64,000 bases of DNA from contig DATEFB010000012.1 of assembly GCA_035280845.1 (NCBI GenBank), positions 9,093 through 73,092 of the forward strand, read 5' to 3'. Below, piece by piece: positions 5,635 through 48,815 of this stretch. How positions within the stretch are numbered: position 1 is the stretch's first letter; every line of letters begins with the position of its first letter. The position numbers and the translations under genes were made by a program. This stretch comes from Candidatus Saccharimonadales bacterium (lineage in GTDB: Bacteria; Patescibacteriota; Saccharimonadia; Saccharimonadales; EFPC-124). The notes under the pieces were generated by a model that worked only from the letters and a program-made list of their open reading frames with translations, was not told the origin of the DNA and searched no databases.

Positions 5635-5904
5635 CTACCAGCTGGCCTTTGTTACGCCAGGGACTTCACCTTTGCTGGCTTTTTCGCGGAATGTGATACG
5701 GTCGAGGCCGAAACGGCGCATGTAAGCGCGTGGGCGGCCACCAACCAACGAACGGTTCTTCTGACGGGTTGGGCTACTGTTGCGTGGCAAAAGTGCCAGG
5801 CCTTCGTAGTCGCCTGCTGCCTTGAGTTCGGCGCGCTTAGTGGCAAACTTGGCAATCATGCGAAGCCGTTTTAGGTCACGGGCGATGATAGATTTCTTAG
5901 CCAT
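5635..5904 (-). CDS. rpsN: 30S ribosomal protein S14 (long type)
   Basis: [13 protein letters not shown]... [18 protein letters not shown]; ORF trimmed to ATG at 5902-5904 next to the rplE stop. Confidence 0.9.
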
Positions 5905-5905
5905 C

Positions 5906-6496
5906 TTAGCGGTTCTCCTTCTCAAATGGCATGCCGAATGCGGTCAAAAGAGCGCGGGCATGTGCTGGTTCGTCAGCTTTAATTACAAAGTTCACCTGCA
6001 AACCATGCAGTGTGGTTGTGTCTTCAAAACCAAGTTCTGGGAAGATCGACTGGTCGGTCAGGCCCAGGCTGTAGTTGCCAGCTTTGTCGAAAGCCTTAGC
6101 ACTTACACCGTGGAAGTCGCGCATACGTGGCAGTACGGCCTGTACCAAGCGGTCCAGGAATTCGTACATGCGGGCGTCACGCAATGTAACGCTCACGCCA
6201 ATGCGGTTCATGCCGCGGCGGATTTTAAAGGTTGCAATAGATTTCTTAGCCATGCGGTCAACTGGCTGTTGGCCAGTGATCTTGCGCAGCGTACTTACTA
6301 CAACCTCGTGATAATGCTTGTCATCCTTGTTCTTACCAAGGCCTACGTTCAGCACGATTTTCTCGAGCTTCGGCACCTGGTGAACATTACTAAGACCTAA
6401 GTCTTTCTGGAGACGTGGCACCAGCTCAGTATTGTACAGAGCCTTGAGGCGAGCAGTATCAGCAGTCGCGCGACTTGCTTGCGTCTTCGTTACCAT
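5906..6496 (-). CDS. rplE: 50S ribosomal protein L5
   Basis: 196 aa; uL5 motifs ([22 protein letters not shown]). Confidence 0.92.
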
Positions 6497-8753: not shown

Positions 8754-9166
8754 TACTTAGTCTCCTTCTTTGCAGCAGCCGGCTTAGCGGCTGGTTTTTC
8801 GCTTACTTTCTTAGGCTTAATCTCACCACTGACTTCGACCAAAATGTGGCTGGATTTCTTCTGGTATGGCAAGGCACGGCCCATGGCAGCTGGGTTAAAG
8901 CGCTTCAGGCGTGGCCCGGCAGTAACTTGCAGTTGTGTGATTTGCAGGGTGCTTTCAACCAAACCGTGGTTGTTGACGGCGTTGGCCTTGGCGGCAGCGA
9001 TTAACTTGGTAACAGGTTTGGCGGCGCGCTTAGGAGTGAATTCCAGGATAGTCAAGGCGTCAGCTACGCTGCGGCCACGTACCAGACCGGCAACCAGGCC
9101 AATCTTACGTGGGCTTTGGCGTACACCCTTTGCCGATGCTCGGACAATAGTTTGTAATTCAGCCAT
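8753..9166 (-). CDS. rplV: 50S ribosomal protein L22
   Basis: 137 aa; ...ARASAKGVRQSPRKIGLVAGLVRGRSVADALTILEF... uL22 with Lys/Ala-rich tail. Confidence 0.9.
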   Translation of the reverse strand: MAELQTIVRASAKGVRQSPRKIGLVAGLVRGRSVADALTILEFTPKRAAKPVTKLIAAAKANAVNNHGLVESTLQITQLQVTAGPRLKRFNPAAMGRALPYQKKSSHILVEVSGEIKPKKVSEKPAAKPAAAKKETK

Positions 9167-38573: not shown

Positions 38574-39011
38574 TTACGACTGCGGAAAAGGCGGTCTGGA
38601 GACCCGGTGGGGCTCGGGCTGGCCAAGGCCTGCGCGCACAATACGCTCCAGCCAAGCCAGGTCGGCAGCCTCGTCCTGCCCGTAGATCTCGCCCATCATG
38701 ATGCCGGCGAGCAGAGCTGCTGACGTACAGGGCTCCACCTTGACGGGCAGAAGCTTTTCGCGGCCACCGAGGAATCGGATTTCCGCGTAGCCCAGCCCGA
38801 GGTCACGCATTGAAGCTTCGCTCAGAAGCACCAGCGAGAACTCGGTGTCGAGCATGCCACGGCCGAATGCCGCATAGATGCTGCCGCCCGGCACGTAGTC
38901 TGACACGACAACCTCGAAGCCCTTGTCCGCGAGCCGGGCTGCGATCCACGTGGCCATAGCTACATCATTGCCGCGCGCCAGGTGGATGATGCCAACCTTA
39001 CGCTTTGTCAT
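38574..39011 (-). CDS. TIR-like domain protein (standalone, 145 aa), ~65% GC
   Basis: flavodoxin-like pattern matching TIR secondary structure: VGIIHLARGND (betaA), AMATWIAARLADKGFEVVV (alphaA), SDYVPGGSIYAAFGRGMLDTEFSLVLLSEASM, LLPVKVEP. Confidence 0.45.
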   Translation of the reverse strand: MTKRKVGIIHLARGNDVAMATWIAARLADKGFEVVVSDYVPGGSIYAAFGRGMLDTEFSLVLLSEASMRDLGLGYAEIRFLGGREKLLPVKVEPCTSAALLAGIMMGEIYGQDEAADLAWLERIVRAGLGQPEPHRVSRPPFPQS

Positions 39012-39150
39012 GCTAATCCTCTCAGTAAACGGCGTGGCAAAATTATATAATCTTTCAAGATTTTATACAAAAACATTCTTCGTTATTTGCGCCTATTGTC
39101 TTCCCATGTTTTAATTTGTTAGTTCGCCGACCACAACGCAGGAGGTACCA

Positions 39151-39861
39151 TTGCAACGACAATGCGCAACCTTGAACGTACTCGCCGACGCCTACCTGGG
39201 CTATGGCAGCTACGACTCAGCACCGGAGCTTCTGGTGCCGGGCGCACGCACACCGCATCTGGTACGGCTCATCAACGGCCTAGGGGCCGACATTGTGGGC
39301 CTGCAGGAGGCCGAGCCGACTCTGGTGGCCGCGCTCAGCATGGCCGGCGATTGGCAGGTCTTCTGGTCACAGAAGCAAAACAACAAACCGGACGGCTGTC
39401 TGACTCTGGTGCGGCGAGGCATTACCGCCATGGGCTTCACCACCCACGGCTATGCCGATGGCACCGGACACATCCTGCAAATGGTGACTGTCGAGGGTGT
39501 CGTCTTTGCCAACACGCACATCAAGTGGGCCCCGGCAGACAGCCCGGACCACGTTGGCGTAGGACAGACAAGGGCAATGCTCGACCACCTGGGGTCTACA
39601 CGCCCAGCGGTCATCTTCGCAGATTGCAACGACCGCCCAGGTGGACCGGTTCGGGCGCTAGTGCAGGCCGCAGGCTTCACCAACGTCAGTGGCGATGACC
39701 CGACAGCACTCATCGGGGAGGAGCGGGCGCCGATCGACTTGCTCGCCTACCGTGGGGTTCGCGCCACGCGAATCGACCTGCAGTTCAAGCCCGACGACAT
39801 CCCCTCGACCGAATGCCCATCGGACCACATTCCGGTGATGGCGACCATCGAGACCGAGTAA
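39151..39861 (+). CDS. endonuclease/exonuclease/phosphatase (EEP) family protein, TTG start, high GC
   Basis: 236 aa; LNVL...DIVGLQE...SDHIPV motifs of EEP fold; SD GGAGG 5 nt before TTG 39151. Confidence 0.7.
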   Translation: MQRQCATLNVLADAYLGYGSYDSAPELLVPGARTPHLVRLINGLGADIVGLQEAEPTLVAALSMAGDWQVFWSQKQNNKPDGCLTLVRRGITAMGFTTHGYADGTGHILQMVTVEGVVFANTHIKWAPADSPDHVGVGQTRAMLDHLGSTRPAVIFADCNDRPGGPVRALVQAAGFTNVSGDDPTALIGEERAPIDLLAYRGVRATRIDLQFKPDDIPSTECPSDHIPVMATIETE

Positions 39862-39964
39862 CACCGGCGGCGAGGGATAGGCATCGATGACCTATCCCTC
39901 TGCGGCTCCTGAACGGAGCCGCTTTTCAAATGAACGAATCTTGTATCTCCGCGCCGCGACAGCC

Positions 39965-40426
39965 TTATACCAGTCGCGCCAGCCGATCCATCATAGCCAC
40001 AACCGAGTCTTCATTCATTCCAGACTCCATCATAGCCTGACGTTCCTCGACAGATTGAAAGATCATCTGATCGGTCAATCTCGTCTTGCCACCAGAGAGT
40101 TCCTCGAAGGTCACCGTGTGGAGCATCACGCTCGGCACCGCCTCGAAAGCCCACGTGCCCACAAGCAACTCGCCTTTTACAACTTTGTGGTAGACGCCAC
40201 GAAACAAATACTCATCGCCGCCAACCGTATTAATAAAGCGCCATTGACCCCCTTCGCGCACGTCCATTACCTCAACGTTTAGCGGGCTACTTGGATCGAT
40301 CCACCACTTGGGGATTAATGTGGGATCTGTATATGCTGCAAACACTCTGCTCGCTGGCGCATCAAAAATATAGGTAGAGAGCATGACAAGAGAATCTGGC
40401 TCAGCAGTAAATGTATGGTGTGACAT
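39965..40426 (-). CDS. SRPBCC superfamily protein (AHSA1/Aha1-like)
   Basis: 153 aa; FDAPASRVFAAYTDPTLIPKWW...GGQWRF pattern typical of activator-of-Hsp90-ATPase-like SRPBCC proteins. Confidence 0.65.
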   Translation of the reverse strand: MSHHTFTAEPDSLVMLSTYIFDAPASRVFAAYTDPTLIPKWWIDPSSPLNVEVMDVREGGQWRFINTVGGDEYLFRGVYHKVVKGELLVGTWAFEAVPSVMLHTVTFEELSGGKTRLTDQMIFQSVEERQAMMESGMNEDSVVAMMDRLARLV

Positions 40427-40440
40427 TAAAATATATTCCT

Positions 40441-41061
40441 TTAGTTAGGCTTGTATGTAAGAAGCAGGAGGCCGTTGTTGAGTGCCCGAGTTTCGACTAA
40501 TCCCAGCGTCTTCTGATCTAGCCCTTCATTAAAAAGCCGCTTGCCTTCACCGAGAATAATCGGGTGAAGCTGCAGCCGATATTCATCGACAAGATCATTC
40601 TGAATAAGCGTTTGCACCAATTGAGCGCTGCCATTCACTAGAATAGGGCCGCCGGCTGATTGTTTGAGCTTTTTGAGCCCTGCGACAACGTCGTGCTTAA
40701 TCTGGGTTGTATTATTCCAGATCAAATCTTCATCTGTAAGCGTAGACGAAACGACATACTTCTTCATACTGTTTATTTGATCAGAGAACGCTCCCATATT
40801 AGCCGTGGGCCAAAATTCGGCAAACGCTTGGTACGTAACTCGCCCTAAAAGCAGCGCATCCGCAGCCAACAGCTCATCAACTTTGTACTGACCAGCTTCT
40901 TCATTCATGAAGGGCAGGTTCCAGCCACCGCGGGGGATTTCCTTGCTACCACCTGGGTCTTGCATAACACCGTCAAGGGTAATAAATTCGGATACAATAA
41001 TCTTTCGCATAGAGACCACTGTAGCGTACAACGGACGCCCCGTCTTGAATGAAAACGACAT
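40441..41061 (-). CDS. dihydrofolate reductase family protein (RibD C-terminal domain type)
   Basis: 206 aa; MRKIIVSEFITLDGVMQDPGG...GSAQLVQTL...DEYRLQLHPIILGEGKRLF. Confidence 0.75.
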   Translation of the reverse strand: MSFSFKTGRPLYATVVSMRKIIVSEFITLDGVMQDPGGSKEIPRGGWNLPFMNEEAGQYKVDELLAADALLLGRVTYQAFAEFWPTANMGAFSDQINSMKKYVVSSTLTDEDLIWNNTTQIKHDVVAGLKKLKQSAGGPILVNGSAQLVQTLIQNDLVDEYRLQLHPIILGEGKRLFNEGLDQKTLGLVETRALNNGLLLLTYKPN

Positions 41062-41807
41062 TACTGTTTGGAGTTTTTGGCCTGAATTTGGGCCGGCGTA
41101 AGCCCAAGAAAGTGTTTCAACGATCGGTTAAGGTGCGACTGGTCAGCATAGCCTGCCTCTATCGCCACAGTATCAATTGACATGCCCTTCGCCAAAAGGT
41201 TGGCGGCATAATGCGCCTGCTCTATGCGCTTTAGGGTACGCTTGGGTAGTCCAACGGTCTGCAGAAAATGACGCTGCACCGTGCGCTGAGTGCCCTCTAG
41301 GGATTCCCCTTTTAGCGTATTCTCTACGACCGAATCATGGACCAGTAGCCCCTCTCTCACTAACCGAGCCACAAACGACTCGGCATTATTAAAGGTCGGA
41401 AAGTGCCAGAGTTCTCCGTTGAGCCGAAACGTTGCGGGTGTTACCGATGGGAGCTCCCGGTCCCTCAGGTCATACAATTCGTGAGGAGGGAAATAAGGCA
41501 TATAGACGCCGGGCTTGAACACAATACCAACAAACTCAGCGTTGGCAGGACAGGTCATTTCTGTCGCTTTTGTTTCTGGCCCACGGAGAGTAAGTGTTGT
41601 TTTGCCATCAATCCTCGACACGACCAGTTCCCAATAACTGTTTGCTACCGAGGTAAAGATACTCTCGTGCAAGCTGCGGGCCCGCCATACTTTTTGGATA
41701 TATGGCGAATCCGACGGCCTCTCTTCAAGAGTAAACTGCTGAGCCACTATTGACGCCCCTTCGACATAGCGCGATTGTATCAAAACCGGCGCGCCAATGC
41801 GACCCAA
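41061..41807 (-). CDS. AraC family transcriptional regulator
   Basis: 248 aa; C-terminal double HTH (QRHFLQTVGLPKRTLKRIEQAHYAANLL...AIEAGYADQSHLNRSLKHFLGLTPAQ). Confidence 0.8.
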   Translation of the reverse strand: MGRIGAPVLIQSRYVEGASIVAQQFTLEERPSDSPYIQKVWRARSLHESIFTSVANSYWELVVSRIDGKTTLTLRGPETKATEMTCPANAEFVGIVFKPGVYMPYFPPHELYDLRDRELPSVTPATFRLNGELWHFPTFNNAESFVARLVREGLLVHDSVVENTLKGESLEGTQRTVQRHFLQTVGLPKRTLKRIEQAHYAANLLAKGMSIDTVAIEAGYADQSHLNRSLKHFLGLTPAQIQAKNSKQ

Positions 41808-41834
41808 GGCTAAAAAGGCAGAAGCAACAACAAA

Positions 41835-41868
41835 GTAAAAGACCTCAGGCGTAACTGAGGTCTTTTAC
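41835..41868 (-). terminator. terminator hairpin (AAAAGACCTCAG gcgtaa CTGAGGTCTTTT) immediately 3' of tRNA-Leu
   Basis: 12 bp perfect stem followed by T-rich tract on minus strand. Confidence 0.6.
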
Positions 41869-41869
41869 T

Positions 41870-41953
41870 TGGTGCGCGAGAGAGGACTTGAACCTCCACG
41901 CCCGAAGGCACATGCTCCTAAGGCATGCGTGTCTACCATTCCACCACTCGCGC
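41870..41953 (-). tRNA. tRNA-Leu (anticodon UAG), 84 nt with long variable arm and encoded CCA
   Basis: rev-comp GCGCGAGTGGTGGAATGGTAGACACGCATGCCTTAGGAGCATGTGCCTTCGGGCGTGGAGGTTCAAGTCCTCTCTCGCGCACCA; 7 bp acceptor stem, anticodon stem CATGC/GCATG with loop CTTAGGA (TAG, G37), T-loop TTCAAGT; closely parallels E. coli tRNA-Leu architecture. Confidence 0.9.
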
Positions 41954-42042: not shown

Positions 42043-42801
42043 TCAGTTGTGGACGCCGTTCAGTAGCACAGCACCTTGTTCGGCCGTGTATCCGGCGTGG
42101 GCCAGCGCGGCTCGGGCGTTAGCGTAGTCGCGCGATTCGGGATCACGGCCCGCGAGCTTCTTCTTGAGGCACGCGGCAATGTCTTCATCGCCAATATGTG
42201 CCTGTGTCCTGGACTCGAATCCCGCGCCAGTGTGCTGCGCCAGGTCCTCGATCGGGATATTACAGACCTCTTTATGGCCGTCGGCCACAAGGGGCACCAC
42301 AATACAGAAGAGGTGCGTGACCAGATCGATCCGCGGCGGCCCTGTGGTACGGGCGCCAAACCACAGTCCGTGCTGCAGCAGCCGTGCGTATCCGTGGCAC
42401 AGGAACGGCTCGTCGTCGAGAGTCCGCAGGAGCCGCCGACCCTCACGCAGAGCAGTGAGGATGGCTGGATTACCGGCCCCGAACACCACCTCGACCGCTA
42501 TTGCCAGCTTCTGGCTGGTGGGCACTTCGCCGATGTTGCAGAGTTCGTTGACTCTCTTGTACGCCGTTTGCTTGAGACGGTGGTGGTCGGCCGGGTGCTG
42601 CTGGTTGAGCCCGTACAGTTCACCACGACGCGCGCGAAGGCGTGTAATCGTGTCGTCTATCTCCTCCATCTCGGTGCGGTATGCAAGGCCAATGGCTGCC
42701 GAGGCACTTACCTCGGCGGCGGCTGCAGCTACAGTCTCGTCCAACAGGGCGAGCGCAGAAGCGCGTTCGGCACGAATTGCCTCCATAGCTCGTCTGGGCA
42801 T
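42043..42801 (-). CDS. hypothetical protein (252 aa), ~66% GC
   Basis: minus-strand ORF with SD AGGGGAGA 4 nt before ATG; overlapping plus-strand ORFs judged GC-driven artefacts. Confidence 0.5.
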   Translation of the reverse strand: MPRRAMEAIRAERASALALLDETVAAAAAEVSASAAIGLAYRTEMEEIDDTITRLRARRGELYGLNQQHPADHHRLKQTAYKRVNELCNIGEVPTSQKLAIAVEVVFGAGNPAILTALREGRRLLRTLDDEPFLCHGYARLLQHGLWFGARTTGPPRIDLVTHLFCIVVPLVADGHKEVCNIPIEDLAQHTGAGFESRTQAHIGDEDIAACLKKKLAGRDPESRDYANARAALAHAGYTAEQGAVLLNGVHN

Positions 42802-42859
42802 AGTCTCCCCTAACTGTTTGGCACTAAAACAAGAGTAAAATAAATAACCAAAAAGTCAA

Positions 42860-45415
42860 CTACATAGTGAACCAGGCCGAGCCATTGTTATATACCTGTA
42901 CCGAGCCCCATGCGGTATTGATAGTCCGCGAGCCCGCGCCGTCGATAGTCTGACCGCTTGTTCCCTGAATGGTAATGTTACTGGCGCCGGCGTTCCCTGT
43001 TTGGTCCTTAATGATGTACGTTTGGTTCGTATTGCCAGCCGCAGCCAAAGGTAACGTTACGACACGTGGCGCGGTCAGTGTTGTGTAAGCAATAAGGTAG
43101 TCACTGGCGACGGCAATGTAGTTAATGTCGGCGACACCCCGGCGGTTAATAGCCATACCTCCGCCGAGGCTTAGAGTAGCAGTAGGCGCAGCCGTACCAA
43201 TGCCAACATTGCCGCCGGTAAACCATGTGTTGCCACTCGGCGCCACTTTTGCCACGCTCGCGCTCGGTGCAGGCACTGTGCCCGCAGTAGAAGCACCACC
43301 GGTATCGGTAAAGCTGTTTGTGGTAGCGGTGTAGTACACGTTCTCGCCGCCCGGACTAGTGCCGCGATATATCCTGTACGATCCAGCACCGGCAACGGCC
43401 GTCCAGCTTAAGTTGACCGAACCACTGGGGCCAGTAACGACAGCGTTTACTTCTGAGCCGGCCACAGACGTGCCGCCAGCACCATCGAGCGAGATAACCT
43501 GGTAATAATATGTGCCGCTCGCTAGCGTTCCACCGCTCCCAACAGGAGTTGCCGAAAGCCCGCCAGGTGGCGACATACGAATGTTGATAGTGCCGCCATT
43601 AACCGTTAAAGCTTGGTCGGGGCTAGCCGTTAAAATGCCCACGCGGTTGCTTTGGTTGTCGACGTTAAAAATGGTGGTGCTTGCGGCGTTTTGCACTTGC
43701 AATACATTCGATGCGTTGTTGACTGGCTTTACAAGGACGTTCGAAGTCAGCATGGCGTTTGCAAACACGTAGTTACTGCCCTGGCTGTAGCGCAACGTAC
43801 CAATAATAGTTCCGGTAAACGGTGTAACAGTTGCCGAAAGGTTGGCCTCGATCTGGATTGGCGTCAGTACGTTACTGCCATATACAACGCCGACGGTAAT
43901 CGGGTTGTTAACGCCTGAGCCAAAAACGGTGTTGCCTGCGTGCATGCGAACTGTAACCTCTTGGGCATTTGCCAGTGCCAACGCTGTTCCACCGGTGTTG
44001 TTAGCCTGAATGTCCAAAACAATGTCTTTATTCACGCCACTGTTAATTTGTCCGATTGCCACAACCGGGTCACAGCTTGTGGTTACGCCAATAACTTCAA
44101 AAGCCTGCACGTTGGCGTACACGTTGCTACATGCGTTATCAATAACCAGACCGCCGAACGGCACGCCTACACCCGTACAGCTATCGACAAACAGGCTCGT
44201 GTAATGGATCTGGTTACTCTGGTTTAAATGCACGCCCGTCTTACAGCCAATGGCATACACAAAATTCACCACGCAGTCGCTCCCGGCATTGTGGTAAATG
44301 CCGCGGTAACCACCTTTTATAAACACGCCGCCAATTTCGAAGTGATACCCAAGGAGCGCCAGTCCATCTTGCCCTCGCAGCAGCCCGGTCGACTCAATTG
44401 CGGTACCCACATGCCACAGCCGCACATCGCCTAAGTAAATATGCGCCTGCTGGTTCGAGGTAATGCCAGCCTGGATGCCTGCGCCATGCAGACATTCAAC
44501 AAGAATCCGACGCACTACGGCATAGGGCTGCACCACCACGCACGGAGCAAAGCGGTCGGCCAATGCATTCACAATAATACCCAAGCCGTCAAAGATAACG
44601 CCAGACGGAATGGAAACCTGGGACGTGACAATATAAATCGCCTGTGTCGGGCCGGCTGGCAACGTAACAACACCATTACCCATGCCCATTGGCTGGTTTG
44701 GGTTGGTCATGTAGCCAGCAATAAATTGCAGCCCGGTTGCGGCGGCGTTGACGGCGTTCTGCAGTGCGGCCGTGTTGTCGCTGCCGTACACCATAACGCC
44801 GTTGCCGGAGTTGGTTGTAATGCCGGCTGTCGACGCAAGCGTTACCTGAGTGGCCGACTGCACAGATTGAATGGTTGTGATTGTACCCGCGCTCCCGCTG
44901 GTATATACAATGGCTATTTTGCCAACATCCGCCGAACTAAACGTACCGGCGCTTGTGGTAACAGTAGAACTTCCCGATGCCGCCACAACGCTGTTTACGC
45001 GTTTGCCGTCGCCAAGGGCGCCGTAATCGCGGGCGTTAATCTCGACATCACCCTTACTGACCAATGCCGATGTATCAACGGTAGGGTTGCCCCACTTCAC
45101 ACCCGCCGCCTGCGCACTGTCTGCCACAAGTGCCTGCCCGTCTGTGCCGACACCAAGGCGCTGTACGTTCGAGGCACCAGCCGCGACAAACAAATCGCCC
45201 TTGGCAGTTGCCGCAGTTTTATCGATTTTAGAGGCGAGCGCACCCTCGAGGCCATTCACCTTACTCTGGGCAATATTGGCCGCAGCAGAAATATGAGCAT
45301 CTGCAACAATTCCTGAGCGCAACGATCCATCTGACTTATGGACTTGTGCTAAGAAATCGTTGAGGACTTGTCCCCAAATACCATCATCGCCACCAGGACT
45401 TGGAAGCCGCGACAT
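42860..45415 (-). CDS. large beta-helix protein: pectate-lyase-superfamily (tailspike/depolymerase-like) domain + FN3-like + tail-fibre-like C-terminal domain
   Basis: 851 aa; NARDYGALGDGKRVNS (Pectate_lyase_3-type start), Gly/Thr/Ser/Asn-rich beta-helix body, SVNLSWTAVAGAGSYRIYRGTSPGG (FN3-like), C-terminal GGNVGIGTAAPTATLSLGGG motif seen in phage tail-fibre domains; no obvious signal peptide. Confidence 0.65.
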   Translation of the reverse strand: MSRLPSPGGDDGIWGQVLNDFLAQVHKSDGSLRSGIVADAHISAAANIAQSKVNGLEGALASKIDKTAATAKGDLFVAAGASNVQRLGVGTDGQALVADSAQAAGVKWGNPTVDTSALVSKGDVEINARDYGALGDGKRVNSVVAASGSSTVTTSAGTFSSADVGKIAIVYTSGSAGTITTIQSVQSATQVTLASTAGITTNSGNGVMVYGSDNTAALQNAVNAAATGLQFIAGYMTNPNQPMGMGNGVVTLPAGPTQAIYIVTSQVSIPSGVIFDGLGIIVNALADRFAPCVVVQPYAVVRRILVECLHGAGIQAGITSNQQAHIYLGDVRLWHVGTAIESTGLLRGQDGLALLGYHFEIGGVFIKGGYRGIYHNAGSDCVVNFVYAIGCKTGVHLNQSNQIHYTSLFVDSCTGVGVPFGGLVIDNACSNVYANVQAFEVIGVTTSCDPVVAIGQINSGVNKDIVLDIQANNTGGTALALANAQEVTVRMHAGNTVFGSGVNNPITVGVVYGSNVLTPIQIEANLSATVTPFTGTIIGTLRYSQGSNYVFANAMLTSNVLVKPVNNASNVLQVQNAASTTIFNVDNQSNRVGILTASPDQALTVNGGTINIRMSPPGGLSATPVGSGGTLASGTYYYQVISLDGAGGTSVAGSEVNAVVTGPSGSVNLSWTAVAGAGSYRIYRGTSPGGENVYYTATTNSFTDTGGASTAGTVPAPSASVAKVAPSGNTWFTGGNVGIGTAAPTATLSLGGGMAINRRGVADINYIAVASDYLIAYTTLTAPRVVTLPLAAAGNTNQTYIIKDQTGNAGASNITIQGTSGQTIDGAGSRTINTAWGSVQVYNNGSAWFTM

Positions 45416-45569
45416 GAATTACTCTTCTACCCCCGCTTACATCATAAGCTTTTTACTCGACTAATGGTAGGCGAAGCTCCCTCGCATGTCAATCTTATAA
45501 TAAGTGCAAAATCTGTAACGGAGTGTGTCGGAGTGACCATGACTGGCCACCCCGACACACCCTTGAGCC

Positions 45570-47177
45570 TTACGAGCGGGCATGCCGCCCTCGGCTTCGT
45601 ACCCTCTTGGTTTGTGGTTTCGGTTCCTGGACTTGTGACTGTTTCTCCGTCACCGGCCCAGTTACCGCACGCAGCGTTACCGCCACGTACACCAGACCGG
45701 TGAGGAGGTTGGGCAGGAAGTCCCACAGACTCCAGGCTGCCATGTAGTACGCCGACCCGCCGACCCAGATGAGACCGGTGCCGAAGCCCCAGCCCCCAAT
45801 GAGTGTGCGGGAGTACTTGATCCGGCGACTCGTGGAACCCTTCTTTGAGCCCGTTGCGCTCCATCCTAGCCGCTTGTCCCGCAAGATGTCCATGAGCGCG
45901 AACGCGTGTGCCCATCCGTAGACGAGCTTCACCGCCCACGCGTCGATCCCATAGCGACACCTGTGCCATGCGGGGAAAATCACCATGTTATAGATCAACG
46001 ATGGCAAGATCCACAGATAGTTTTCGAGCAGCACCTGATCGGGGAATACCAGCAGCAACACGATCGGGATCGTCGGACCCACAATCGTGAAGATGGCGGT
46101 GTGCAGGTAGTAACAGAACCCCGATAGATAGCAGCACCTCGTGCGGAAGCTCATCTTGGCAGCCCAGAACTTGCGGCTACCCAGAAGGGACATCGACCCC
46201 ATGCACCACCGATATTGTTGCTGGATAAATTTCACCAGCATATCAGGGCACTCTCCCGTTGCCAGGTTGATGGGGAGGTAGAACAATCCCCAGCCTGTCT
46301 TCGAGAGGTAACGCAGGTCGAATCCCGTGTGAACGTCCTCGGAGTGGCCGATCAACGTCGGACCGCCGCCGTTCTCCTCTAGCGCTTCGCGCCGGTAGAT
46401 GGCATTGGTGCCAACGCAGATCGCTCCGTCGAGCTGATTGCGTGACTGCTGAATGAAGCGGTAGAACAGTTCCTGTACTGCTCCCGCCCCGCTTTGGAGC
46501 CAGTTCTGAACGTCCCTTCGGACGTGGAAGTACTGCGGAGACTGAATGATACCGAGCCGGGGGTCTCCCTCCAGGTACGGCAGCATCTCCGTCAGATAAT
46601 CCTCCCGCGGGCAGAAGTCCGCGTCGAACACTAGCAGGTACTTGCCGGGGCGTTCCTTCTTTCGGCTGATTAAGAACCCGAACTTCAGGTTCCCCGCCTT
46701 CTTGAACCACCCACGGATGTTCTTCCCCCCGTAAATCGGCACTGGGGGCCGTGTGTGATACTCGAAGTTGGCACCAGCACGCCGGAATTCGGCCACCAGT
46801 TCGGCGGCCTCCGGCGACTGTCCGTCATCCAGCACGTAGGCAGTGATCTCCCCGCCGAGAAGCGTGTAGGCCTTCATCATCATGGCAACATAGTGCCACG
46901 TATTCCGAAGGGTCCTGGTCGGCTCACCGGCGATCGGCAGCATGACGTCAATCGGGGGAAGTCCTTCAACAATGGCCTTGGCAAGCCACGCAGCCACCTT
47001 TACCCGGTGAGCGGCAACATCGAAGCTGGAAGCTCCGAAATTGACGGCCAACGAGATGAAGTAGTACGCAACCGTGAAGACCAAGAACAACGAGTACGCC
47101 GACACCAGCCATGGATTGAGCAAAAGGAACTTGCCCTGGCTAATGATCAGACACGTAAAGCTGACGAGCGACACCAC
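45570..47177 (-). CDS. processive family-2 glycosyltransferase (cellulose-synthase-like), multi-TM, GTG start
   Basis: 535 aa; DVMLPIAGEP, LVFDADF (DxD), GHSEDVHTG (TED-like), QQQYRWCMG (QxxRW) motifs plus 6-8 TM helices. Confidence 0.8.
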   Translation of the reverse strand: MVSLVSFTCLIISQGKFLLLNPWLVSAYSLFLVFTVAYYFISLAVNFGASSFDVAAHRVKVAAWLAKAIVEGLPPIDVMLPIAGEPTRTLRNTWHYVAMMMKAYTLLGGEITAYVLDDGQSPEAAELVAEFRRAGANFEYHTRPPVPIYGGKNIRGWFKKAGNLKFGFLISRKKERPGKYLLVFDADFCPREDYLTEMLPYLEGDPRLGIIQSPQYFHVRRDVQNWLQSGAGAVQELFYRFIQQSRNQLDGAICVGTNAIYRREALEENGGGPTLIGHSEDVHTGFDLRYLSKTGWGLFYLPINLATGECPDMLVKFIQQQYRWCMGSMSLLGSRKFWAAKMSFRTRCCYLSGFCYYLHTAIFTIVGPTIPIVLLLVFPDQVLLENYLWILPSLIYNMVIFPAWHRCRYGIDAWAVKLVYGWAHAFALMDILRDKRLGWSATGSKKGSTSRRIKYSRTLIGGWGFGTGLIWVGGSAYYMAAWSLWDFLPNLLTGLVYVAVTLRAVTGPVTEKQSQVQEPKPQTKRVRSRGRHARS

Positions 47178-48002: not shown

Positions 48003-48815
48003 TTACTTGCCCTCAGCCCGCTGCAGTGCTTCGTACCAGGCAAGGGCGATTGTTTTTACAATGATCGGCGCCAGTTGCTCGCGTGTTTCGCGGGCCAGCT
48101 GCCGGGTCCAGCCTTTATGGCTAAAGCGGTCATACATTTTAAGCTCGTAAATCTCGCGAGCAGCCTCCTGGAATACCTGCACCGTGCCCACTTTAAGCAC
48201 CCGGCGGCATTCTGCCTTGGTTGGGTATCCACGCTTTAGACGCAAAGGAGCAATAATGGTTGCGACGCCAAATTCGTAGAGCCCGTGGGTTGTCATAACG
48301 CCTTTTGCGCCCCACATTTCCCAGTTTTTGGCCAATACTTTAGACGGCTTGTCGCCTTCACCCTTAATTATGAGCTTGTCTTTAATGCTTGTGCGGGTCT
48401 CGAGGCCTTCACCCCTCAGTTCTTCCAGGCGCTCTGCAAGCGGAAAATGGTGCGCCGGTGTTAGACCGTCGGTAATTGCATGCGCCTGCCAGGCTGCCTC
48501 GAACGCAGCTTTTTCGCGTTCACCTTTTTTAAGGGCGGCGGTCAGGTTTTTACTGTGACGTTCAATCATGCGTAGCAATTCGGTGTCTCGCTCGTCCATT
48601 GGGTCATAATAATGCCATGGTTCGTCGCGGGCAGGCGACTTGCTTTTAATGCCGTCGGGCCCGTTTTTGCCCTCGAACTGCAGGATTTCTTTATTGGTCG
48701 GAAAATAAGTGCCTGGCGCCACAGATTCGAGCGCCTTGCGTGCCACACGGTCAAGCTTCTGGTGCGCGCCAATAATGCGGCCAGAATGTTTACGGAGGGT
48801 TGTTCCTGAGTACAT
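48003..48815 (-). CDS. zinc-dependent phospholipase C family protein (cytoplasmic, no signal peptide)
   Basis: 270 aa; EPWHYYDP and HAITDGLTPAHH motifs parallel the Zn-ligand blocks (HFYDP, H..D..QP.H) of Bacillus PC-PLC family. Confidence 0.5.
   Translation of the reverse strand: MYSGTTLRKHSGRIIGAHQKLDRVARKALESVAPGTYFPTNKEILQFEGKNGPDGIKSKSPARDEPWHYYDPMDERDTELLRMIERHSKNLTAALKKGEREKAAFEAAWQAHAITDGLTPAHHFPLAERLEELRGEGLETRTSIKDKLIIKGEGDKPSKVLAKNWEMWGAKGVMTTHGLYEFGVATIIAPLRLKRGYPTKAECRRVLKVGTVQVFQEAAREIYELKMYDRFSHKGWTRQLARETREQLAPIIVKTIALAWYEALQRAEGK

Follow-up and report, generated by a model that had tools for sequence, protein, structure and literature searches.

Genes and features of the locus

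In the chromosome of a soil Candidatus Saccharimonadales bacterium, represented by a metagenome-assembled genome (MAG; GCA_035280845.1), a gene encoding a glycosyltransferase of family GT2 lies directly upstream of a gene encoding an 851 aa protein with a tailspike-like beta-helix, and this pair of genes is the subject of the present analysis. The window is the whole 64,000-nt stretch of chromosomal DNA that was analysed (contig DATEFB010000012.1, 74 kb long, positions 9,093 to 73,092 of the forward strand); according to an exact-sequence look-up, a second sample yielded an independent assembly of the same contig. The initial annotation, made from the letters of the window, had called three open reading frames (ORFs) and a tRNA-Leu in this region, and all four are found where it placed them, on the minus strand. 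The positions of the pair and of the parts of its two products are:

45570..47177, minus strand: GT2 gene, 535 aa (ORF; Pfam PF13632, PF00535 and PF13641)
46206..46835, minus strand: span of the GT2 catalytic motifs, each in register with BcsA 4HG6
45416..45569, minus strand: spacer of 154 bp between the GT2 and beta-helix genes
42860..45415, minus strand: whole gene of the tailspike-like beta-helix protein, 851 aa
45311..45415, minus strand: RLP head, residues 1-35, MSRLPSPGGDDGIWGQVLNDFL..., always at the extreme N-terminus
45065..45310, minus strand: helix and fibre-repeat linker, residues 36-117, of varying length among homologues
43757..45064, minus strand: right-handed parallel beta-helix core, residues 118-553, from model and alignment
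44783..45001, minus strand: insertion domain of ~73 residues, residues ~139-211, splitting a PF12708-type start (DYGALGDG / ...YGSDNTAALQNAVNAA)
43295..43561, minus strand: FN3-like beta-sandwich, residues ~619-707, in type-a homologues only
42863..43216, minus strand: C-terminal tip, comprising the GGNVGIGTAAPTATL motif (residues 734-748) and a beta domain of ~95 residues (757-851)

Architecture of the 851 aa protein

For the 851 aa protein, a homology search yields ~59 homologues, full or partial, at E < 1e-66, of which those with a label come from Saccharimonadales or Patescibacteria, and an exhaustive profile search gives 97 clusters at 50% identity (E<=1e-30), most of them without the RLP head and of varied composition; with this many relatives, the genes are real and are no chance ORFs. 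The RLP-headed members of the family number ~46 distinct proteins, on Saccharimonadales-type contigs. Our literature search found no description of this beta-helix family in Saccharibacteria or Patescibacteria. Searches of Pfam, PHROGs and NCBIfam with the full-length protein return nothing significant, and PF12708 is not matched in Pfam at E<=10 by either the whole protein or the core alone. Relaxed Pfam searches with separate parts of the protein produce only noise (NosD at E=0.41 and two FN3-like matches at E~0.07), and a PDB-sequence profile search with the family alignment gives only matches with E>0.1.

The alignment divides the protein into four modules: the RLP head, a variable fibre-repeat linker, a conserved core (residues 118-546 in the alignment) and a C-terminal module. 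The linker, which has a helix at residues 40-63 in the AlphaFold model, matches phrog_33513, phrog_3030, phrog_32934 and phrog_23837, and residues 51-136 match actinophage minor tail proteins and the distal subunits of Vibrio phage long tail fibres (tblastn). The core agrees with the long beta-helix that had been proposed from the sequence. In particular, AlphaFold predicts a beta-helix across residues 125-553, with a per-residue confidence score (pLDDT) that is mostly >90. The best Foldseek matches of the core in the PDB are the tailspike depolymerases CBA120 TSP2 (6w4q, E=1e-5), gp49 of Pseudomonas phage LKA1 (4ru4, 1.3e-4) and the Shigella phage Sf6 tailspike (2vbk, 3e-4), with GH87 and GH28 following next. 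In BFVD, 139 viral proteins are matched at E<=1e-3, with 'pectin lyase-like' proteins at the top of the list. Moreover, 39 invariant core columns are common to the cellular and phage clades. The invariant or near-invariant polar residues of the core are D130, D163, H335, E341, R347, K367, H375, D380, N401, D411, Q485 and N495; in the monomer model, the invariant D380 and D411 and the near-invariant E341 are predicted to lie on successive parts of the helix.

The pectate-lyase-superfamily start described in the initial annotation is real, though it is neither contiguous nor visible to Pfam. An hhalign comparison with RLP-headed PF12708 proteins (99.6%) finds a DYGAKGDG|TDDTAAIQAAI-type start that is present but split, with NARDYGALGDGKR at residues 127-139, and the PF12708 model misses the protein because a domain of ~73 residues is inserted within the signature. 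This insertion domain has weak profile matches to a phage distal tail protein and a decoration protein, and phrog_32881 ('pectin lyase activity') matches residues 122-234 (E=8e-11). The protein thus resembles the PF12708 family ('pectate lyase superfamily / Pect-lyase_RHGA_epim') in its DYGAxGDG...AIQxA start (the DYGAxGDG...DDTxAIQxAI signature), its first rungs, its RLP head and its right-handed beta-helix fold, whereas it falls below Pfam detection even at E=10 and the profiles diverge, with loss of the hhalign alignment, beyond residue ~295. What is unusual in the 851 aa protein is a beta-helix family outside Pfam with a split PF12708 signature.

The C-terminal modules of the family fall into three unrelated types: a (FN3 plus tip, ~305 aa), b (~200 aa) and c (~120 aa). 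Type a is found only in the nine closest relatives, the window's protein included. The FN3-like unit that had been proposed is a beta-sandwich in the models, for which the C-terminal half was modelled separately (pLDDT 78-89), and it has a weak sequence match to PDB 3mpc ('Fn3-like protein', E=0.004, residues 656-709). Likewise, the motif at residues 734-748 had been called typical of phage tail fibres, and the modelled tip that follows it resembles phage baseplate and tailspike-docking domains; its Foldseek matches include a Klebsiella phage KP1 baseplate protein (E=8e-5), the N-terminal docking domains of CBA120 TSP4, the crAss001 tail muzzle and the T4 baseplate. By tblastn, residues 769-851 match a small ORF on an IMG/VR contig (L025, 34%), and the tip also matches the 'T7 tail fiber protein' of a Thermocrinis virus.

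The GT2 synthase and its actinobacterial relatives

The neighbouring gene was described as a multi-membrane-spanning, processive GT2 with DxD, TED-like and QxxRW motifs, and alignment to BcsA bears this out. Residues 70-382 align with residues 136-440 of BcsA 4HG6 (phmmer against the PDB, E=3e-24), and on careful alignment every catalytic motif is present and in register: DDG (115-119), KAGN (160-165), the DxD within VFDADF (183-188; DAD 185-187), GTNAIYRR (256-263), the 'TED-like' SED (279-285) and QQQYRW (319-324). Of the three Pfam matches, that to PF13632 has E=1.6e-15, and the best NCBIfam model is CelA TIGR03030 (E=5e-34), reached with 117 bits against a cut-off of 699; the score for PRK11498 is 70 bits against a cut-off of 992. 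No PilZ domain is matched in Pfam, and the BcsA alignment stops at about residue 440. With BcsA-type motifs, no PilZ domain and a CelA score below the cut-off, the protein is a processive synthase of the BcsA type but no true BcsA. Hydropathy places hydrophobic segments at residues 2-45, 61-79, 348-432 and 484-509, with ~7-8 segments flanking the catalytic domain, which places transmembrane segments on both sides of the GT domain, where they could form a presumed translocation channel.

As judged from identity, the nearest relatives of the synthase outside its own lineage are actinobacterial, which was not foreseen in the initial annotation. The closest matches are ~11 Saccharimonadales-type orthologues, followed by >100 full-length matches at 49-54% identity, and wherever a match from outside the lineage has an organism name, it belongs to Actinomycetota (Streptomyces, Actinoplanes, Streptacidiphilus, Kitasatospora, Actinospica, Spirillospora, Sphaerisporangium, Phytohabitans, Plantactinospora and Streptosporangiales). 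Identity to these Actinomycetota proteins is about equal to the identity among the type-a GT2s of divergent Saccharimonadales. Among deposited phages, the synthase matches only distant cyanophage, Salmonella and Listeria entries, with none from an actinophage, and it weakly matches two PHROG families of unknown function.

In Streptomyces sp. NBC_01262 (CP108462.1, locus L027), the orthologue lies in the gene order PMT_2, GT2, GH26, PMT_2, PMT_2 and UDP-sugar dehydrogenase. The start of the GH26 gene overlaps the stop of the GT2 gene and the GH26 protein bears a lipoprotein-type signal; the Streptomyces orthologue is translationally coupled to a secreted GH26 glycanase. This locus contains no homologue of the beta-helix protein. 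A literature search found no paper that describes it, and it is apparently an uncharacterised actinobacterial glycan locus. The same interval (L027 8034-18100) also holds a small GT2 and a UDP-glucose/GDP-mannose dehydrogenase, and whiB-like and guaB-like genes adjoin.

Conservation of the gene pair

Whether relatives keep the GT2 and beta-helix genes together had been proposed as a check on the pairing, and they do so in five of five type-a lineages and at both type-c loci. In the type-a lineages (the window, L003, L005, L021 and L022), a GT2 orthologue with 50-65% identity is located directly upstream, on the same strand; three of these lie in an rsmD...tRNA-Leu context, and the other two have a different, unrelated setting in which NUDIX and PGI genes follow downstream. 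The beta-helix gene is intact, with 63-86% identity across lineages and the GT2 gene alongside. At the type-c loci (L019 and L006), a GT2 of the same Pfam type lies directly downstream; it is 36% identical and is the outgroup to all others in a neighbour-joining (NJ) tree (all trees are NJ with BLOSUM distances and midpoint rooting). The pairing therefore recurs with two GT2 lineages and in both gene orders. Further, at L011 a different RLP-headed protein (1026 aa, canonical PF12708) is followed by a 46%-identical GT2.

Partner hydrolases and lyases, as in BcsA/BcsZ, Alg8/AlgL, PelF/PelA and PgaC/PgaB, trim, release or remodel the polymer of their synthase. The present pair resembles such exopolysaccharide (EPS) pairs, including BcsA/BcsZ and the Streptomyces GT2/GH26, in that a BcsA-type GT2 adjoins a putative glycan-cleaving protein and the adjacency is conserved (7/7 type-a and type-c loci, plus L011). 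It differs from them in three respects: the partner is a large, multi-domain, tailspike-like protein without a signal peptide instead of a small secreted GH, the Saccharimonadales cassette has no PilZ, BcsB or other accessory genes, and its GT2 scores far under the CelA equivalog cut-off. The spacer (45416-45569) contains one promoter-like match (TTGACA-17-TACCAT, 45492-45464) and no terminator-like site; the number of consensus matches in the region is not above shuffled expectation, so the pair is at most a putative operon.

Two sets of neighbours were recorded alongside. At L021 3218-3931, in one type-a lineage, a divergent gene for a PIG-L family (GlcNAc-type) deacetylase lies directly upstream of the GT2 gene; this one locus hints at the possible presence of N-acetylated sugars in the polymer. 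The neighbours of type-b members are either GH1, a second RLP-headed PF12708 protein and GH39, or GH18. At L017 3231-8109 and L018 3226-8004, a canonical PF12708 protein (~484 aa) and a type-b member, both RLP-headed, flank a divergent GH1 gene, with a signal-bearing GH39-PKD-malectin protein downstream in L017; these loci look like a small glycan-utilisation cluster around RLP-headed proteins.

Phage kinship of the core

The core of the window's protein is 37-42% identical over ~430 residues to three proteins (P0055, P0216 and P0049) encoded in the tail modules of three phage contigs (the contigs are IMGVR_UViG_3300035704_000002, IMGVR_UViG_3300044684_000224 and ERZ27257121 k141_989226). P0055 is located on a 128 kb IMG/VR contig between a tail lysin and baseplate W/J-like proteins, with a tape-measure protein upstream, and the baseplate J protein of this locus has 88 known-phage matches, all from phages of Arthrobacter, Gordonia or Brevibacterium. 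P0216, on a 93 kb IMG/VR contig, follows a tape-measure-sized protein of 1553 aa and a tail protein of 750 aa that matches only Streptomyces (32) and Thermobifida (1) phages. P0049 is preceded by giant proteins and followed by a helicase, an endolysin and a holin; 12 of the 17 records that match the helicase are actinophages. The three phage loci have a GC content of 65-67%, compared with 48-55% for all Saccharimonadales loci. A tblastn search of the core against 50,697 deposited phage genomes gives no match, so the phage relatives are known from metagenomic contigs only, and IMG/VR scans with the family alignments return only one match to a C-terminal domain and the P0055 contig. The branches of a crude NJ tree mix RLP-headed groups with non-RLP, phage-type groups, which suggests repeated exchange of modules. 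On these comparisons, the phage ancestry or kinship of the core is real.

Overall, the protein is like phage tailspike depolymerases in its right-handed parallel beta-helix body, which gives the best Foldseek matches, in its layout of N-terminal adaptor, beta-helix and C-terminal part without a signal peptide, and in the presence of core homologues in phage tail modules. It is unlike them in its setting, as the window copy is chromosomal, placed among housekeeping genes, paired with a GT2 and outside any phage tail module; in its N-terminus, which is an RLP head and no recognised virion-binding domain; and in its sequence, which is ~10-14% identical to any solved tailspike.

A separate observation concerns the phage loci themselves. 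The family phrog_24476 ('phosphodiesterase') is common to a 1768 aa protein (L023 1-5997) and the 750 aa tail protein (L028 5735-7987), each upstream of a beta-helix homologue, which suggests a common tail-tip enzyme module in these actinophage-like phages.

The N-terminal head and the question of export

The RLP head follows the consensus M-x-RLPxPGxDxxxWGxxLNxFL, invariant in the family alignment, and is not itself a Pfam domain. It is shared with PF12708 proteins (hhalign 99.6%). A profile scan of genome contigs with the family alignment listed mostly RLP heads and one full relative; among the matches listed, the head is carried by at least nine other beta-helix proteins from Saccharimonadales, Rhizobiaceae, Chloroflexi and Limisphaerales. 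At L007-L016, the head (~35 residues) stands at the extreme N-terminus of PF12708 proteins of Saccharimonadales, a Rhizobiaceae MAG and a Limisphaerales MAG, and of a repeat-rich protein in a Chloroflexi MAG; some of these RLP-headed proteins also hold BppL_N, End_N_terminal or CBM5/12 pieces. Moreover, residues 1-34 share 56% identity with a collagen-repeat protein from Streptomyces phage BRock. With this distribution, the RLP head is an obvious candidate for a docking or export module.

The 851 aa protein was said to lack a signal peptide, and we find the same: the highest Kyte-Doolittle value of any 19-mer within the first ~40 residues is 0.08, and the start of the gene is confirmed. A miscalled start that hides a signal peptide was considered and rejected, as the ORF opens right after a stop codon and M-x-RLP stands at residue 1 in the homologues.

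In phage BRock, the annotated collagen-repeat coding sequence gp186 (L031 5791-6738) overlaps a tRNA-Lys gene (5845-5918). The RLP-like head begins at 6001, so translation of gp186 probably starts ~70 codons further downstream than annotated. This gene sits in a tRNA-rich region, outside the tail module.

Proposed function and alternative explanations

The best reading of the pair is a synthase and a putative tailspike-type glycanase, drawn from the gene pools of the host phylum and of the phages of that phylum. The favoured explanation, to which we assign a probability of about 0.5, is that the 851 aa protein is a tailspike-type glycanase that acts on the class of glycan made by the GT2, on the cell itself and possibly on a host. 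Together, the two genes would constitute a chromosomal cassette for a surface glycan in a Saccharimonadales (TM7) epibiont from soil. The GT2 would polymerise a nucleotide-sugar on the cytoplasmic face and extrude a glycan, probably beta-linked, through its own transmembrane channel, and the beta-helix gene would take the position that the secreted GH26 has in the locus of the actinobacterial orthologue. In the 851 aa protein, the RLP head would be a putative docking or export module, a row of acidic and polar residues (D380, D411, E341, H335, K367, N401, Q485 and N495) may line a putative glycan-binding or glycan-cleaving groove, the FN3 unit could serve as a spacer, and the phage-baseplate-like tip could be swapped. 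The beta-helix would bind and cut the glycan class made by this GT2 family, and its task on the epibiont would be to trim, release or remodel the polymer that the cell itself makes. We infer that the protein forms a trimer and is catalytically active, and we likewise infer the residues responsible, the glycan concerned, a signal-less route of export and any action on host cells.

The extension to a host rests on a combination of relationships. Because Actinomycetota make the same synthase family and the closest relatives of the core with an assigned genomic context occur in actinophage-like tail modules, the protein is well placed to meet a host-surface glycan; as cultured relatives dwell on Actinomycetota, the recognised glycan is plausibly one displayed by the host phylum. 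Cultured Saccharibacteria live on Actinomycetota (PMC6166536, PMC7441243, PMC13622651). According to a preprint, hosts induce cell-wall polysaccharide genes upon infection by Saccharibacteria, and those genes confer susceptibility to lytic phage (PMC13622651), which makes a glycan target shared by phages and epibionts credible. The initial annotation had named an EPS module and a captured phage receptor-binding protein as alternatives, and elements of both are supported, namely the GT2/tailspike pair and the phage kinship.

Several points weigh against the favoured explanation. The missing signal peptide is the chief weakness of every extracellular model and a problem for a BcsZ-like role; across the family, no RLP-headed relative has a signal peptide or a membrane anchor, while the nearby GH39 and GH18 proteins and the Streptomyces GH26 do bear ordinary N-terminal signals. 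As a cytoplasmic beta-helix could not reach an extruded polymer, a route of export or release must be assumed. None of the characterised GH or PL families is matched by the protein at family level, and its Foldseek E-values are modest (1e-5 to 1e-3) and span hydrolases, lyases, epimerases and the non-enzymatic adhesin PfbA. The promoter-like site between the two genes leaves their co-transcription unproven, type-b members are not beside a GT2, and three exchangeable C-termini would be expected of receptor-binding proteins more than of housekeeping EPS hydrolases. Further, phage origin is verified for only three non-RLP members, most others being metagenomic proteins; the hosts of the phage contigs were assigned from GC content and hallmark-gene matches, and the hosts of soil Saccharimonadales are putative.

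A second reading is directed at the host only, and we regard it as possible but distinctly tentative. The 851 aa protein would then be a domesticated actinophage-type receptor-binding protein or depolymerase on the epibiont that recognises, adheres to or digests a cell-wall or capsular glycan of the actinobacterial host; the RLP head would dock it to the epibiont surface, the tips would set host range, and the GT2 product would be a mere anchor or matrix, or unrelated. Every module has relatives in phage virions, proteins 37-42% identical to the core lie in three actinophage-like tail modules that were verified, the crude NJ tree places RLP groups among phage-type members, Saccharimonadales contain several copies and architectures of RLP-headed beta-helix proteins, and host surface polysaccharide is already implicated in the interaction with both epibiont and phage (PMC13622651). 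In addition, a constant head with three exchangeable C-terminal types mirrors the MAT (mosaic adhesive trimer) prey-recognition fibres of Bdellovibrio bacteriovorus. These are a family of several proteins that resemble phage fibres or tailspikes and combine an invariant N-terminal domain with tips that can be exchanged; one of them binds prey surface glycans (PMC10769870). This likeness, compared by description, is one of design only (a constant head and swappable tips in a bacterium living on bacteria), because MAT fibres have a signal peptide and a beta-rich domain of ~130 aa instead of a signal-less RLP head of ~35 aa, many of them end in an S74 chaperone-protease that is absent here, and they form a beta-prism fibre and have no described GT2 partner, compared with the catalytic-looking beta-helix of the window. 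The host-directed reading also leaves unexplained why two GT2 lineages stand beside the family, in both gene orders, and why the GT2 is actinobacterial-like; it relies on putative hosts for the soil lineages, and none of the named homologue matches comes from a cultured oral Saccharibacterium. A broader proposal, which we hold to be speculative and on balance doubtful, joins the two lines into a host-interface device assembled from host genes and host-phage genes, in which displayed tailspikes cut or recognise the glycan of the host-type synthase and determine host range in CPR episymbiosis, and in which the RLP head marks an undescribed route of docking or export. Under that proposal, the RLP-headed tailspikes without a signal peptide may have descended from actinophage tail proteins, or may exchange with them.

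Three further explanations carry much less weight. AlgG and AlgE modify alginate, and the beta-helix protein could similarly be an epimerase, or a lyase that controls chain length, acting on the nascent GT2 product; the Foldseek list holds the A-module of the mannuronan C5-epimerase AlgE6 (5lw3, target-normalised TM-score 0.46) and several lyases, PF12708 is named after rhamnogalacturonase/epimerase-type proteins, and the presence of two UDP-glucose/GDP-mannose dehydrogenases in the Streptomyces GT2 operon hints at a uronic-acid polymer. This is nonetheless improbable, as the closest relatives in structure and sequence are tailspikes from phage tail modules, whose role is degradation or binding and not epimerisation. 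In addition, the Saccharimonadales cassette has no dehydrogenase beside it in the window or at the type-a loci, and the export problem is the same. Still less probable is a role as a receptor-destroying enzyme or decoy, by which the epibiont would strip or mimic the glycan receptor of phages and so shield the host-epibiont pair. The core is indeed common to actinophage tail proteins, the GT2 could make a host-like glycan, and host cell-wall polysaccharide genes are tied to phage susceptibility (PMC13622651, PMC11087802); the proposal is, however, purely inferential, with no sequence feature that sets it apart, and it shares the export problem. The least probable explanation, and one largely refuted, is a prophage remnant or island cargo at the tRNA-Leu with no cellular role. 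It would account for a tailspike-like protein that is signal-less like virion proteins and lies near a tRNA gene, and for the weak PHROG matches of the GT2. The initial annotation had named adjacent phage genes as the mark of a pure prophage remnant, but the genes called in the 10 kb to each side of the cassette include no phage, integrase or mobility gene. Moreover, the tRNA-Leu is an ancestral neighbour without att-like repeats, the intact gene persists together with its GT2 in two chromosomal contexts, and the ~46 RLP-headed members are distinct proteins on Saccharimonadales-type contigs.

Significance

To our knowledge, type IV pili are so far the main player in host binding by Patescibacteria. 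How Saccharibacteria and other Patescibacteria recognise and bind their hosts is largely unknown (PMC11623550). The cassette provides a clonable candidate for this interaction, consisting of a non-Pfam beta-helix family with kin in actinophage tails that is tied to a synthase like those of the host phylum. If this link is true, one surface glycan would be the target of both the phages and the epibionts of Actinomycetota, the epibiont would have gained genes from its host phylum and from that phylum's phages, and attention would be drawn to the RLP head, present on beta-helix proteins of several phyla, as an uncharacterised N-terminal module standing in for a signal peptide. Should the protein only trim the cell's own EPS, the locus would be a non-orthologous replacement of GH26 by a tailspike-type glycanase, and a GT2/GH26/PMT_2 glycan locus of actinobacteria, as yet uncharacterised, would be defined as well. 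Pairs of synthase and glycanase are already known, as is the use of phage-like fibres or spikes by bacteria; what is unusual here is a non-Pfam beta-helix with a split signature, a conserved head without a signal peptide, and a dual affinity to the host phylum and to host phages.

Flanking genes and the variable slot

Downstream of the beta-helix gene, the locus contains two further features:

42043..42801, minus strand: orphan ORF, 252 aa, outside the conserved module
41870..41953, minus strand: tRNA-Leu(tag), the locus boundary and ancestral downstream neighbour

The initial annotation had counted the 252 aa gene as a member of a three-gene block, which did not survive comparison with relatives: it is a strain-specific orphan in a variable slot. 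Its only match among 5.8 billion proteins is itself, it has no Pfam, PHROG, NCBIfam, PDB or phage match, and it is absent from the syntenic relatives. In its place between the beta-helix gene and tRNA-Leu, L003 has an opposite-strand gene of 333 aa, and L021 and L005 have a gene of 89 aa; the three-gene block was therefore rejected. The GC content of the 252 aa gene is 62.5%, compared with 54% for the window, and two long ORFs on the opposite strand (42076-42813 and 42164-42838) overlap it.

The tRNA-Leu that the block was said to abut is present, but there is no sign of an island. In both L003 and L021, tRNA-Leu(tag) is also located downstream of the orthologue, and the direct repeats at the tRNA are only short and probably due to chance, with none that are att-like; an integration site at tRNA-Leu was rejected on these grounds. 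A strong terminator-like hairpin with a 16 bp stem lies directly 3′ of the tRNA (41833-41870, minus strand). The interval 38574-41807 of the window, which separates the 3′ side of tRNA-Leu from the gene for 6-phosphogluconolactonase, encodes TIR_2 (145 aa), Exo_endo_phos (236), AHSA1 (153), RibD_C (206) and AraC-family (248) proteins, and in L003 these five genes are not between, as tRNA-Leu directly adjoins the 6-phosphogluconolactonase gene. The interval looks like an insertion or variable region at the tRNA, yet its GC content equals the window average and it has no att-like repeats.

Overall, the genes within 10 kb of the cassette encode a PBP, tyrS, recG, rsmD, an AraC-family regulator, RibD_C, AHSA1, Exo_endo_phos, TIR_2, 6-phosphogluconolactonase, hisS and trigger factor. 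Between recG and rsmD, the window encodes a 270 aa protein without a Pfam match (48003-48815), and L003 and L021 have a 270 aa gene at the same position, also without a Pfam match on record. Judging from length and position alone, this protein may be a conserved unknown of the lineage.

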